Below are positions 17,344 to 23,249 of a stretch of 64,000 nucleotides of DNA, one piece after another. Numbering within the stretch: the first letter of the stretch is position 1; the number at the start of each line of letters is the position of its first letter. The notes beneath the pieces are model-generated. The model ran no database searches and had not been told where the DNA came from. It saw only the letters and a program-made list of their open reading frames with translations. This stretch comes from Tolypothrix carrinoi HA7290-LM1 (GTDB lineage Bacteria; Cyanobacteriota; Cyanobacteriia; Cyanobacteriales; Nostocaceae), in assembly GCA_019358935.1 (NCBI GenBank), contig JAHHIK010000012.1, positions 32,001 to 96,000 on the forward strand, read 5' to 3'. A program made the position numbers and the translations under genes.

Positions 17344-17555
17344 AACACTTAGTCAATAGTCACTGTTTCCACAGTAGATGAGTATAGAGTCAAAAGTACA
17401 TAGTTGGTGAGTTTTTGACTAAGTAGATGGGCATAAATAAACGCTTCGTCAGGTAGTATGGAAAAAGTCCAATGATTCAATAGTTAGGCTGCTTCAGGTT
17501 ACTGCTGAGACATTACTTGGAGGCTCCGCCGGTGAGGTGATTGATCCCTAACTGC

Positions 17556-18461
17556 TCACGTATCATCACGATTTAACTCGCATTGTGTCGTCTTCCGCGC
17601 CAAGTTGAGAAATGCGCTGATGACTGGTGAGGAATCATGCTGCCGCCAAGCCAGATAAAGTCCGGTTTTAGGTATCTGCTCTTGTAAGGGTCTGTAAATG
17701 ACTCCGCTTCTGTGGAAGTTTTGCAAGGAGGCGGGAACGATCGCAATGCCCAGTCCTGCCGCAACTAAGCCGATGATCGTCTGCATCTGAACTGCCTCTT
17801 GAGCCACTTTCGGACGAAATCCAGCTTGTTGACAAATGGTAATAATCTGCTCGTAAAAGACGGGTCCCATTTTGGCAGGAAATAGGATAAATAATTCCGA
17901 AGCCAATGTGGAGAGCGACACTTGAGTCTGGGCAGACAACGGATGGGTTTCTGGCAACGCCAAGACCAATGATTCTGGCAAAAGGCACTCCACACTCAAA
18001 CCTGGTTCGCTGATAGCAGAACGAACAATGCCGATATCAACCTGTTTGTGATGCAGCGCTTGAATCTGTTGAGCAGTCGTCAGTTCATGCAATCGCAGTT
18101 CTACCGCCGGAAACTGTTCTCGAAAGACCCTTACAATCTCTGGTAGTAACGTATACATTGCAGAGTCAACAAAGCCGATCGCCAACCGTCCAACCTCACC
18201 CCGTCCTATCCGTTGTGTCACTGCGATCGCCTGTTCAAGTTGCGCTAACACCAGGTAGGAGCGCTCTAAAAACACTTTGCCTGCTTCGGTAAGCTGCACG
18301 TGTCGCTTCGTTCGTTCAAACAGCTTGACTCCTAGTTCATCTTCCAAACTGCGAATCTGCTGGCTAAGTGGGGGCTGGGAAATGCACAACCGCTCTGCTG
18401 CTCGACTAAAGTGTAGTTCCTCAGCCACCGCGATGAAATAGTGCAGGTGCCGTAGTTCCAT
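17556..18461 (-). CDS. LysR-family transcriptional regulator
   Basis: MELRHLHYFIAVAEELHFSRAAERLCISQPPLSQQI helix-turn-helix; divergent from an SDR gene. Confidence 0.95.
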   Translation of the reverse strand: MELRHLHYFIAVAEELHFSRAAERLCISQPPLSQQIRSLEDELGVKLFERTKRHVQLTEAGKVFLERSYLVLAQLEQAIAVTQRIGRGEVGRLAIGFVDSAMYTLLPEIVRVFREQFPAVELRLHELTTAQQIQALHHKQVDIGIVRSAISEPGLSVECLLPESLVLALPETHPLSAQTQVSLSTLASELFILFPAKMGPVFYEQIITICQQAGFRPKVAQEAVQMQTIIGLVAAGLGIAIVPASLQNFHRSGVIYRPLQEQIPKTGLYLAWRQHDSSPVISAFLNLARKTTQCELNRDDT

Positions 18462-18579
18462 CACACTTATATGTCTAACCTATTAATCTTAGTCAAATAT
18501 ATATTGGACAGTCGCATGGCTGTCTTCTACCGTAAGAAATATGAAGCGTGTCTCACCGTATTTGTATTGGAGAAAACAA

Positions 18580-19461
18580 ATGAACTCAGACAAAAATTGT
18601 GTCGCTCCTAAAGTTTGGTTAATTACAGGATGCTCAACAGGATTCGGACGTGCCCTAGCAGAAGCTGTGTTGAAGAAGGGCGACGAAGTGCTTGCTACTG
18701 CTCGCAAACCAGAGCAACTTCGCGCTTTGATTGAGCACTATCCAGAGACCGCAAAGGCTGTACGTCTAGATGTAACGTTATCCCAAGACACACAAGCAGC
18801 CGTTGATACAGCAATCGCCACATTTGGTCGAATTGATGTGCTGGTCAATAATGCTGGCTATGGACTGATTGGTGCACTCGAAGAAGTCAGTGATGCTGAT
18901 ATTCGCCAACAGTTTGAAACCAACTTCTTTGGGGCACTCCGTCTGATCCGAACTGTCTTGCCTGTGATGCGTCAGCAAGGCAGCGGTCACATTGTGAATA
19001 TGTCATCCACAGCAGGATTAGTGGGATTTGGTGGAAGCAGTATCTACTGTGGCACTAAATTTGCCCTGGAAGGCACATCTGAAGCCCTGGCTAAGGAGGT
19101 TGAATCTCTTGGAATTAAAGTCACTTTAATTGAACCTGGGGCATTTCGCACAGACTTCAACGGACGCTCTCTGGCAGCAGCCGAACAATCCATTGATGCC
19201 TATGTTCCGGTGAGCGGGGCTTCATTGCAGTGGTTCAAAGATATGGATGGTCAGCAACCTGGCAATCCACGATCAGCGGCGCAAGCCATCGTTCAAGCTG
19301 TGGAAAGTCCTCATCCACCGATGCGACTGGTATTAGGCACGGATGCTATGAGCCTGATTCATGAAAAACTGGAATGGATCAAAACGGATTTGGATGTTTG
19401 GCAGCAGGTGACTGTAAGTACGGATTATACAGATAGTAACAGTGAGGTAATAGTTGGGTAG
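18580..19461 (+). CDS. Short-chain dehydrogenase/reductase
   Basis: TGCSTGFG, NNAG and YCGTK motifs. Start placed at ATG 18580 after GGAG. Confidence 0.92.
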   Translation: MNSDKNCVAPKVWLITGCSTGFGRALAEAVLKKGDEVLATARKPEQLRALIEHYPETAKAVRLDVTLSQDTQAAVDTAIATFGRIDVLVNNAGYGLIGALEEVSDADIRQQFETNFFGALRLIRTVLPVMRQQGSGHIVNMSSTAGLVGFGGSSIYCGTKFALEGTSEALAKEVESLGIKVTLIEPGAFRTDFNGRSLAAAEQSIDAYVPVSGASLQWFKDMDGQQPGNPRSAAQAIVQAVESPHPPMRLVLGTDAMSLIHEKLEWIKTDLDVWQQVTVSTDYTDSNSEVIVG

Positions 19462-19495
19462 CTAATACCAGTTCTCTTTGAAGGCGCACAGAATC

Positions 19496-19616
19496 GTAGG
19501 TTGGGGAGCCACTTGCATGGGCGGGTTTCCCGACTTGAGCAAAGTGGCGTTTGAACGGCGTGAAACCCAACGAGTGCTGGATTTTGTTGGGTTTCGTTTG
19601 ACTCAACCCAACCTAC
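19496..19616. repeat. GTAG-type REP-like palindromic element with a nested repeat insertion
   Basis: Termini GTAGGTTGGG...CCCAACCTAC, internal GAAACCCAAC/GTTGGGTTTC; an AGCCACTT...GGGTTTCCCGACTTG...AAGTGGCG unit is inserted in the left arm. Confidence 0.65.
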
Positions 19617-19730
19617 AGTTATATGCAAGTCTAAAGAGACTTTCAACTCAACTAGGCGCGATCGCCCCAACGGTTCGGAAGATAGATAGAGCCAGTCTAC
19701 CCTCTACCCTTTAGCCTCTACCCTTTAGGA

Positions 19731-19886
19731 TGTTATGCAGAAACTTTCGACCTATCCACCCAAATGAGCGTATTATGCGGAAAGATTCGGCTTAAACAGC
19801 GGCTTTGGAGTATTATACAGAAACTTTCTGTCTATCCGCCCACTGCGGATCTTAGGCGGAAACTTTCTGTCTATCAATTGTTAGAC
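19731..19886 (+). other. Array of four ~27-bp imperfect palindromes at 40/40/39-bp spacing, ending at GTTAGAC (putative attI-like recombination site)
   Basis: Units start at 19731, 19771, 19811 and 19850; consensus about TTAtrCrGAA-ACT-TTCkGtCTAT; GTTAGAC at 19880-19886. Confidence 0.55.
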
Positions 19887-19940
19887 AGCTTTAAGTGATC
19901 TGTGAGGACATATTTCAAAGTTGTCGTGAGGTTGCAACAA

Positions 19941-20699
19941 TCAGTTTCGTCCTGCGGTTATGCCACCATCGACGGGCAAGACAACTCCGGTGATCCAACT
20001 GGAACAAGCATCATCAGCTAAAAATAGAATTGCTGCTGTTGTATCCTTGACCTGCCCATTTCGCCCTAACGGATGAAAAGCGTTGAACGACGCAAGTTGT
20101 TCTGGTGTCAGCAAAGGGTCAAATAAAGGGGTTTCAACCACAGCAGGCGCGATCGCATTCACGCGAATCTTGTCGGGTGCAAATTCGATTGCCAGGTTAC
20201 GAGTCAGGGCGTGAACTCCACCCTTCGCTGTTGAAGATCCACTACAGGGCGTTGCGGCGATCGCATGATTTGACCACATCGACCCAATATTCACGATCGC
20301 GCCACTGCCCCGTTGCCGCATTTGAGCGATCGCAGCCTGGGACATGAAAAAGTAGCCCTTCAGTAAGTTCAAATAACTGTCGAGGTCTTCTTCAGTGTGA
20401 TCAAGGAAGGGTTTTGGTTGAAAAACGCCTGCATTGTTGAGCAGCACATCGACACCCCCAAATTGTTCGACGGCTAGATTCACGATGCTCTGACTCGTCT
20501 GAGGGTGTCCAATGTCACCTGCCACGTAGACAACTCTTTCCTCAGTTGGGTCAATAGCATTAGCTGTTTGCGACAATAAATTTTCGCGCCGCCCATTGAG
20601 CACAATTTTCGCTCCCGCCTTGTAGAAGGCGTGTGCCACATCTGCACCAATGCCACTCCCGCCTCCGGTAACTAATACAACTTTGTCTCTCAAACTCAT
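19941..20699 (-). CDS. Short-chain dehydrogenase/reductase (FabG-like; the catalytic Tyr position appears to be Ser, SSTAK)
   Basis: TGGGSGIG, NNAG, IRVNAIAP and ITGVVLPVDGG motifs. Confidence 0.9.
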   Translation of the reverse strand: MSLRDKVVLVTGGGSGIGADVAHAFYKAGAKIVLNGRRENLLSQTANAIDPTEERVVYVAGDIGHPQTSQSIVNLAVEQFGGVDVLLNNAGVFQPKPFLDHTEEDLDSYLNLLKGYFFMSQAAIAQMRQRGSGAIVNIGSMWSNHAIAATPCSGSSTAKGGVHALTRNLAIEFAPDKIRVNAIAPAVVETPLFDPLLTPEQLASFNAFHPLGRNGQVKDTTAAILFLADDACSSWITGVVLPVDGGITAGRN

Positions 20700-20797
20700 G
20701 ACCCTCTCCTAAATTGTTTATGCTTTAGCAATCAAGAGCATAGGAGATGGCGCAAATGCCCGCAAGCAGGCACAATTTTGTCAGGTAGGGTACTTTT

Positions 20798-21160
20798 ATG
20801 AAAGAAATGCAGTCGTTCCAAGACCTAAACGTTTCGGAAAACGTGCGGGATGTTGCCGAGGTTGTTGAGGCAGTATTTGGCTGTAAATGGTCGCTGCGAA
20901 TTTTAGGGTTGATTCGACGAGGGATCTGTCGCCCTGGTGCGATCGAGCGAGAGTTGACAGGCTTAACCCCTAAAGTTCGGAATTACTATTTTCGACGGAT
21001 GATCAAGTTAGGCATTCTGGAACGAGTAGTGTATCCAGCAGTTCCGCCTCATGTAGAGTACAAACTCACGCATTTTGGGCTACGGTTCATGCCGATTTTA
21101 GATTCCATTGAAGCGTTACAGCGTGAACTTGAGGTAGACAGTAAGAAGCAAGGTTTGTAG
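20798..21160 (+). CDS. HxlR-family winged-helix regulator
   Basis: GCKWSLRIL and VYPAVPPHVEYKLTHFG motifs. Confidence 0.9.
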   Translation: MKEMQSFQDLNVSENVRDVAEVVEAVFGCKWSLRILGLIRRGICRPGAIERELTGLTPKVRNYYFRRMIKLGILERVVYPAVPPHVEYKLTHFGLRFMPILDSIEALQRELEVDSKKQGL

Positions 21161-21174
21161 GGTGTTTAACCGCT

Positions 21175-21262
21175 GTCGAACAACCGTGTTGCAGCGGAAC
21201 GTACCAGCCTTCTTCGTTGAGTTGCAAAGGCGATCTGCGTCCGCTGAACACGACCGTTAGGC
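21175..21262 (+). mobile_element. Integron attC-like site 1
   Basis: R'' GTCGAAC, 5-nt spacer, TGTT(G)CAGCGGA pairing with TCCGCTGAACA (one unpaired base), 5-nt spacer, R' GTTAGGC. Confidence 0.75.
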
Positions 21263-21291
21263 CCTACTGCGTATCCTTCACCACACCGCTT

Positions 21292-21675
21292 ATGCCAGAT
21301 CAACCTGCACTCCTAATCGAACTGCTCCGCGCGGCCTACGCGGCCTTTAACGCGCGAGACATTGACGCTGCCCTTGCCCTCATGACTCCGGACGTGGTTT
21401 GGCCGAGAGCATTCAAAGGCGGTTTTGTCCGTGGACCTGAAGAAGTCCGCGCTTACTGGACGGAGCAATGGAGCGAGATCAACGGGCACGTGGAGCCGGT
21501 GACTTTTCACCCGGAGGAGTCCGGACGTATCTTGGTCGAAGTGCATCAGGTCGTGCGCGACCTAGCTGGAGCCGTTCTTGCCGATGAGCACGTCGGTCAT
21601 CGTTTCACCATTGCGCAGGGCTTGATTCAAGCCATGGAAGTCTGTCCGCTTCCATCGTCCGGCCACACAGCCTAA
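21292..21675 (+). CDS. SnoaL-like / NTF2-family protein (gene cassette)
   Basis: AYAAFNARDIDAALALMTPDVVWP...VRGPEEVRAYW motif. Visibly GC-rich; its stop TAA lies inside the GCCTAAC inverse core. Confidence 0.88.
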   Translation: MPDQPALLIELLRAAYAAFNARDIDAALALMTPDVVWPRAFKGGFVRGPEEVRAYWTEQWSEINGHVEPVTFHPEESGRILVEVHQVVRDLAGAVLADEHVGHRFTIAQGLIQAMEVCPLPSSGHTA

Positions 21676-21772
21676 CACGGCGCTCGAGCGAACGCTTCAG
21701 GGCGGCCACCCCGGTTCCGTTCTTCACACCAACAGGCGCCCTGAAGCGTCGCTCAGCTTTGATCCGTTAGCT
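21670..21772 (+). mobile_element. Integron attC-like site 2
   Basis: R'' GCCTAAC; GCT(C)GAGCGA(A)CGCTTCAGGGCG(G)CC pairs with GGCGCCCTGAAGCGTCGCTCAGC leaving three unpaired bases; R' GTTAGCT. Confidence 0.82.
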
Positions 21773-21858
21773 CACGTTAAGAAGTAACCTCCAGATTTTG
21801 ATGAACGTCGTAAATCCATTCCAAGCAAGATAGGGGAGCAACCAACGAAACGCCATTT

Positions 21859-22372
21859 TTGACGCATGCCATCAGTATTAATTTAGAAGCACCAACATGG
21901 CTGGCTCAAGCTGCCTTTCCGATTATGAAGCGACAAAACTACGGACGGATTGTGCTTACGACTTCAGATAGAGCTATTTATCAGCAATATGCACTCAGTG
22001 GTCTCGCCCCTTATGCTATGGGAAAAATGGCACAGATAGGTCTGATGAATGTGCTCGCGGTTGAAGGCAAAGAGCATGGAATTCTCGTTAATGCGATTTC
22101 GCCGGTAGCCAAAACGCGGATGTGGAACGTACACTCCAAAGCCAGAGGATTTGCGACCCGATCAAGTAGCCCCTGGAGTGTTATACCTCGCTTCTTTTGA
22201 ATGCCGAGAGTCTGGATTTATATTAAGGGCAAGCAATGGTCAATTCACAGCCGCGCGCTGGATCGAGCGAAACAACGTGGACTATCCGTTAAACCTTGCC
22301 GCTGTTGAAAGTTCTACTGCGGAGGATTTGGCTACTCGCTGGCAGGAAATTGCTGCGGATGTTGCGTTTTAA
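21859..22372 (+). pseudogene. 5'-truncated, frameshifted SDR oxidoreductase fragment
   Basis: YGRIVLTTS, YAMGK and ILVNAISPVAKTRM in one frame; continues as LRPDQVAPGVLYLAS in another frame after ~22140. No N-terminal Rossmann motif. Confidence 0.75.
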
Positions 22373-22515: not shown

Positions 22516-23249
22516 TGTTGATAAATGATTTATTTCATCAAATCGGGATGAGCCTCAAATAAATGAGTGATTCTACTGAATATCTTTTAGACTCTTTTCC
22601 CGTGCCAATGTGTGATAATATCCGGATATTCAATGTAAAATTAATCAAGTCAGAAGAGTACAGAGGTTAGATTGCATCGAAAAAACGCTATTTTTACGGG
22701 GTTCGAGTTCAGTTATTAACGATTAAAAGTGGTGTCCCAGTTGAGTTTGTCTTCATGCCTGGTAGCGCTGCTGATGTGCGGGCATTAAATGCGTTACCGT
22801 TAAATCTGCCACCAGGTAGTGAAATTTATACTGACTCCGCATACACTGATTATACTTCGGAAGATGACCTGAGAAAGACGAGTCAAATTGAGTTGAAAGT
22901 GATGCGTAAAAAGAACTCTAAGCGTAAAGATGAGCCGTGGAATCAATACATTAAACAATCTACTCGGCATTACCCAATCGACTGTGTTCAGCGCGATTAC
23001 TTGTGTTTTCCCTAAATCGATTCATGCAGTCACATATAGAGGGTTTTTACTGAAACTCGAAGCATTTATTTTTGCCTTTACTCTTCAACAAGCATTTAGA
23101 GAATGAGTTAAATATAATACTTGAATTTGATTCAAGACTTGCACTTTTGATTGAGTCAAAGTCGCGGAGTCGCGGCGGCGCTACCGCCTACTTGTCGTGC
23201 GGTAACGCTCAAAGTAGTACACTTGTATTTAATAACCTGCAACTTGGGT
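22516..23249 (+). mobile_element. Degenerate IS982-like transposase remnant
   Basis: LLDSFPVPMCDNIRI...EEYRG*IASKKRYFYGVRVQLLT...IYTDSAYTDY, with in-frame stops and a frameshift near 22975. Possible right terminus GCAACTTGGGT at 23239-23249. Confidence 0.7.

Follow-up and report, generated by a model that had tools for sequence, protein, structure and literature searches.

How can a cassette array be loaded when there is no integrase gene beside it? The question is raised by a 64,000-nt stretch (the window) of contig JAHHIK010000012.1 (C12) of Tolypothrix carrinoi HA7290-LM1 (genome G000), in which the original prediction placed an integron-type array without an integrase gene. We read the locus as an attI site followed by two cassettes without an integrase gene of their own; an IntI encoded at another location probably loaded and reshuffled it, and in this genome it is by now likely frozen (probability about 0.7).

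The two predicted attC sites are present on the plus strand, with core and inverse core and with paired L boxes. attC1 (21175..21262, 88 bp) consists of R'' GTCGAAC, L'' GTTGCAGC, L' GCTGAAC and R' GTTAGGC, and attC2 (21670..21772, 103 bp) of R'' GCCTAAC, L'' GCTCGAGC, L' GCTCAGC and R' GTTAGCT; both have one extra base in L''. A structural filter for attC returned exactly these two sites in the 64-kb window, a filter that is unspecific genome-wide (35 matches in 7.96 Mb, many probably by chance). A covariance-model search of the window had been proposed with the original prediction. With a model trained on 18 attC sites from other cyanobacterial loci, the window's own sites excluded, attC1 scored 67.3 bits (E 3.9e-12) and attC2 a weak 23.2 bits (E 0.008), and the best remaining match in the window was at 11.8 bits (E 2). 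In bottom-strand folding, attC2 stands out (z -4.3, 0 of 200 shuffles equally good), and folding by itself does not single out attC1 (z only -1.6, 15 of 200 shuffles equally good). The attC2 spacer is atypical, at 8 nt versus 5-6 nt in the other attC sites found in the analysis, and its minimum-energy fold has an unpaired R box. The same spacer length recurs in diverged SnoaL cassettes at loci L122, L126 and L138. At these three loci the cassette after the SnoaL attC begins much like the SnoaL cassette itself, and is possibly a tandem or related cassette. The plain count of RYYYAAC (164 versus 137 expected) is little informative, and an Rfam scan of the window gave no match.

Cassette 1 (19881..21256, 1376 bp) holds an SDR oxidoreductase gene (19941-20699, minus strand) and, divergent from it, an HxlR regulator gene (20798-21160, plus strand), followed by attC1. 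The Pfam assignments and the three HIP1 sites agree with what had been predicted for it. Its GC content is 49%, its R'' has one mismatch relative to the cassette's own start, and it likely has its own, predicted, divergent promoters. Cassette 2 (21257..21766, 510 bp, plus strand) consists of a SnoaL-like ORF (21292-21675, Pfam PF12680) and attC2, and is likewise as described, with 59.8% GC, no HIP1 site and the stop codon of the ORF within GCCTAAC. There is no room for a promoter before the SnoaL gene, which is thus predicted to depend on read-through. As a candidate for a cassette promoter Pc, a sigma-70-like sequence (9 of 12 positions, plus strand 19747-19776) lies within the attI repeats and another is on the minus strand, both as consensus matches only.

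Cassette 1, the SnoaL cassette and a LysR unit further upstream each form a unit running from G|TT to an attC that is found with the same ends elsewhere. Cassette 1 is precisely missing or replaced in relatives; a metagenome contig from biocrust joins 19879 to 21256, skipping it exactly, and at locus L211 it has identical boundaries in a different context, where its attC is cut short. In other cyanobacteria the SnoaL cassette sits after attI-like ends of at least four kinds and after several attC sites, and the LysR unit likewise keeps the same ends across other contexts. When 401 genomes of the phylum were searched at the DNA level for cassette 1, the only match besides this genome was a partial, attC-like one. 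From a metagenome search with its SDR, 80 loci were kept, 12 of them at 68% identity or more; both cassette ends were seen in L211 and a similar left end in L217. None of these loci scored with the attC covariance model, and the SDR/HxlR pair therefore appears to lie often outside a recognisable cassette. Nor did the model match at homologs of SnoaL on plasmids of Nostoc carneum and Tolypothrix or at six relatives' loci; several of these retain, by eye, an attI-like end and an attC start. A circle joint was sought in the assembled contigs of one sequencing run, possibly the source of this DNA, and none was found. One soil contig with a joint from 21247 to 17490 (32 nt on one side) was considered as a circle and rejected.

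Directly upstream of cassette 1, at 19723..19882 (plus strand), four direct repeats about 40 bp apart are followed by a simple site, ending at the crossover G|TT at 19880. It has the GTTRRRY core and upstream direct repeats by which attI is defined in PMC12901181. The stretch is colinear, repeat for repeat, with that between intI and the first cassette in the complete integrons of genome G502 (IntI intact, 471 bits) and Kovacikia minuta plasmid pB (NZ_CP083584.1), which have the same attI family (four 40-bp repeats, simple site) and attC family. These integrons keep the intI start codon 212 nt before the crossover, whereas the window has unrelated sequence there and no intI adjoins its attI. 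Judged by sequence, the array is thus headed by an attI and lacks intI. In the spacer before the attI (19462..19722) there is an inverted repeat with arms at 19473-19505 and 19607-19639, together with a dispersed genomic repeat and a HIP1 site; a conserved leader occupies the place at which intI would begin. The leader was considered as an intI remnant and rejected, as tblastn found no similarity. An exact-pattern scan of genome contigs for the attI end gave seven loci, with IntI in the 6-kb flanks of none. At L042/L092 the attI is cut short, on its upstream side, by sequence that resembles, by reading, a group II intron fragment.

The array is nested in a larger unit. An island from 17421 to about 23740 (6.3 kb) is missing in four congeners, in which purM joins a 68-aa gene directly. 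Its left edge (17421..17483, plus strand) is a short remnant that resembles, by eye, intI-linked attI ends, and that ends at a second crossover G|TT (G = 17483). Here begins a unit whose left part (17484..19461) consists of a LysR regulator gene (17556-18464, minus strand) divergent from SDR A (sdrA, 18541-19461, plus strand), both assigned by Pfam. Its start, GTTAGGC, recurs at the identical G|TT behind several left contexts that are unrelated, among them attI sites and an integron attC in G052. Plain copies have SDR B after SDR A; SDR B is intact in G026, G031, G052, G006 and G168. In G003, G009 and L093, SDR B is followed by an attC whose R'' (GCCTAAC) matches the unit's start, and LysR, SDR A and SDR B are therefore taken as one large cassette; in the window this terminal attC is missing. 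The attI block of the window sits between SDR A and a 5'-truncated, frameshifted SDR B, with the inverted repeat and HIP1 site of the spacer at the junction, and the right part of the outer cassette (21767..22372, plus strand) consists of the beginning of a further cassette piece, joined to the 3' portion of SDR B. At 22520-23110, where the attC of the outer cassette would be, lies a broken transposase-like fragment, also present in G005, part of which has 90% identity to a stretch of contig C9. Of the array originally placed at 19880..21772, the cassettes hold, and the description was incomplete: it is no bare attC cluster but has an attI head at 19723-19882 and lies in the outer cassette from 17483.

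A tentative reading is that the LysR/SDR/SDR cassette with its internal attI is a mobile docking platform, excised and inserted by IntI, which seeds integrase-free capture sites, loaded in trans, across Nostocales. The unit with internal attI is found at the exact G|TT after at least three unrelated left contexts (purM in G000 and G005; G135; G074, G104 and G195), and at L093 it still has its terminal attC. The proposal is weakened because segment trees are mosaic, because the purM locus occurs both with the attI block (G000, G005) and in plain form (G001, G009), and because of the missing terminal attC. Trees of lysR, of the two sdrA halves and of sdrB disagree (7 to 20 rows per tree, rows covering less than 85% of the segment dropped). 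The lysR tree places G000 and G005 among other attI carriers (100/100) and separates them from G003 and G009 at the same locus; the group also includes two plain copies. Separately, at L099 in G003, the last sdrA codons contain a GTT at which a cassette-like sequence has been inserted, possibly an off-target insertion of the attG type.

The claim that intI is missing from the 64 kb extends to the whole assembly (99.65% complete, 184 contigs), in which neither the TIGR02249 profile nor tblastn with two cyanobacterial IntI proteins, a genome search that had also been suggested at the outset, found an intact gene. The best TIGR02249 score in the genome is 53.8 bits (cut-off 265), with no match on contig C12, and tblastn found no remnant in the window; its sole match in the genome is a 30-codon 5' intI remnant on contig C28. 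That remnant belongs to a decayed integron (L095, G000:C28:39000-40400), in which the 30 codons are followed by an attI rich in repeats, then by a MOSC cassette with its attC and a further gene that is truncated; its flanks carry a duplicated 5' piece of a neighbouring gene (peptidase-like by reading) and HIP1-like sites at the junctions. A third orphan attI, at G000:C43:10490-13469, precedes a 2.86-kb cassette with an 81.5-bit attC and, by reading, a hydrolase-like ORF and a resolvase/transposase-like insertion. At least six more single attC matches (46-77 bits) are scattered over C96, C9, C90, C2, C59 and C6, in a SALIN-like manner. Beyond the window this genome thus has at least eight attC matches and two other orphan attI sites; the genome-wide scoring covered 150 of 1355 candidates, and further sites are possible. 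The intI remnant on C28 and the orphan attI on C43 imply that the lineage once met IntI.

IntI is sparse in the family. Matches were found in 22 of 251 genomes, 12 of the 251 scoring above the cut-off, and in 0 of 11 genomes of this genus. Among the 14 other genomes that carry the attI described here, two have an intact intI elsewhere in the genome (G022, G535), two have fragments, and ten have none or only generic recombinase matches. The gene in G022 (L080, G022:C14) has 66% GC and 62% protein identity to Nostocales IntI, and may be foreign or a contaminant. When four sequencing runs were compared with a Nostocales intI, parts of the gene were covered in three and an attI stretch only, with no coding part, in the one that may be the source of this DNA, a one-run result that proves nothing. 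Twenty-three further runs with a small share were left out as evidence of habitat. At L184 (G704:C31) an IntI fragment lies between two attI-like matches about 1.7 kb apart.

Copies of this site were sought across the family (389 genomes) and the order (401 genomes). The attI subtype of the window, without intI, is present as 16 copies in 15 genomes of ten genera and two families, most of the carriers being draft assemblies (G005 91% and G111 79% complete). The copies are 95.5-99.3% identical to that of the window over aligned bases; one repeat unit is missing in six of the 16 and one copy is cut short. The same non-intI leader precedes 15 of the 16, at least in part. Six kinds of first cassette are joined at the exact crossover: SnoaL in ten copies, HxlR/zinc-binding dehydrogenase in two, and SDR/HxlR (the window), glyoxalase, GNAT and one without identification in one each. 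At the purM locus, G005 has glyoxalase and SnoaL where the window has SDR/HxlR and SnoaL; the downstream flank is also common to the two (97% over 689 bp), and the first cassette alone differs. G104, which has no IntI match, has two attI copies with different first cassettes; in the second, SnoaL is gone and another cassette lies between the same two flanks. A sister attI subtype (five copies, 82-86% identity over a 236-bp query) has five further first cassettes.

Cassette exchange most likely continued in trans after intI was lost, to judge from these comparisons, since near-identical intI-less copies carry six first cassettes and intact intI is found in only two of the 14 other carriers. The same observations favour, as the best explanation, the original suggestion that the integrase works in trans or has meanwhile been lost. 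A single loss of intI would have preceded the spread of the copies, given that the leader that replaces it is common, at least in part, to 15 of the 16. An unlinked IntI, whose gene may lie in a different chromosomal integron or on a plasmid or may have decayed since, would then insert cassettes by attC x attI recombination and excise them, and the block would spread between genera inside the LysR/SDR cassette. Turnover would be slow, as SnoaL has been kept in ten of the 16 copies. With so few carriers of intact intI, and no match among the 11 genomes of the genus, the exchanges may have taken place in other hosts and arrived by homologous transfer.

A stricter form of this last point is unlikely, though the most probable of the alternatives: capture would occur only in the few hosts with intact IntI, loaded blocks would reach IntI-free genomes by homologous recombination via the flanking SDR genes, and this lineage would never have recombined the site itself. 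Both the discordant segment trees and the two states of the purM locus fit such import, as do G535 and G022, which have the block together with intact intI. However, G000 itself has a remnant of intI and, beyond the window, two orphan attI sites and no fewer than eight attC matches, and its difference from G005 is confined to the first cassette, at the same locus and with the same downstream flank. Import of blocks would, moreover, still require an IntI acting in trans somewhere.

Slightly less probable is an ordinary decayed integron, in which the differences between cassettes predate the loss of intI, or reflect deletions from a single, longer array in the ancestor, and the site has been inactive ever since that loss. 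Decay of intI is indeed common, 10 of the 22 matching family genomes being below the cut-off and several having stops, and the short GTT core at each junction could guide deletions. In Xanthomonas, strains with a common intI lesion usually have common arrays, as reported in 10.1101/2025.06.18.660453. Yet here copies that are 95.5-99.3% identical, and that have the same leader in place of intI, differ in their first cassettes, and descent from a single array would require an ancestor with six cassettes or more that was cut back, repeatedly and exactly, to the attI crossover. That the cassettes entered off target at a genomic attG site (5'-GWT-3') is very improbable: IntI is reported to insert cassettes at GWT sites across genomes (10.1101/2022.09.11.507474), and one such event has apparently occurred nearby in G003, at the end of sdrA, but upstream of 19880 the sequence follows intI-linked attI colinearly for 160 bp, with all four repeats, and is not a short GWT target without attI structure, which largely refutes this reading.

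The preferred reading, exchange in trans at an attI that has lost its intI, concerns a site whose cargo is ordinary (SDR, HxlR, SnoaL). The SnoaL cassette had been taken as foreign, and a search for its matches in the integrons of other phyla had been suggested. All 21 organism-named entries among the best 120 of 3631 homologs are cyanobacterial, as are all six plasmid records with the cassette, and they do not support a source in another phylum. Its lack of HIP1 sites was rejected as a mark of foreign origin, since at the HIP1 density of the contig a 510-bp stretch would have none with a probability of 58%. The high GC content (59.8% versus 42.6% for the contig) is the sole feature that hints at an older foreign origin. 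For the SDR of cassette 1, named close homologs are mostly cyanobacterial, and one entry also bears a Verrucomicrobia name.

In the 2016 survey that introduced CALINs (PMC4889954), these are defined by two or more attC sites with no nearby intI, mobilisation by an IntI elsewhere is proposed, half of them are in genomes without intI, and the attI of most integrons is stated not to be searchable. The prediction that the array is CALIN-like agrees with this definition, our model and filter placing two attC sites 0.4 kb apart with no intI nearby. The window differs from the CALINs described there in having a full attI at its head, at which, by comparison of copies, cassettes would have been exchanged after the loss of intI. 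In Xanthomonas with inactivated intI, chromosomal arrays persist as they do here, and loss of intI is described as tending to stabilise them, the use of CALINs in trans being restated (10.1101/2025.06.18.660453); unlike those stabilised arrays, the first position here appears to have kept changing, with the site at several loci in ten genera. An attI sequence inside an array is described for the delta-attI-type cassettes of class 1 and class 2 integrons, which are recombined by IntI1 (PMC12901181); there, a truncated attI replaces the attC at the end of a cassette, whereas the attI of the window is complete, occupies the middle of a multi-gene cassette and opens a sub-array of its own. SALIN and attG insertions (10.1101/2022.09.11.507474) likewise place cassettes outside a complete integron, and the scattered single attC matches of G000 fit them; their described target is a 3-bp genomic motif, whereas that in the window is an attI homolog. 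Cassette recruitment by natural transformation, as reported for Vibrio (PMC12614218), could by analogy apply here. A literature search found no dedicated study of cyanobacterial attI sites or of an attI nested in a cassette, within a scope that mostly excluded subscription literature and with one search noisy. An array that is headed by attI and apparently loaded in trans would be new relative to an ordinary CALIN.

CALINs have usually been taken as dead remnants or off-target insertions, and the use of an integrase in trans has mostly been voiced as a possibility. The present locus defines an attI family for cyanobacteria and offers a natural series, one intI-less attI with 16 near-identical copies and six first cassettes, that makes use in trans directly testable. 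It also suggests that gene capture in Nostocales is more frequent than one would conclude from counting intI.
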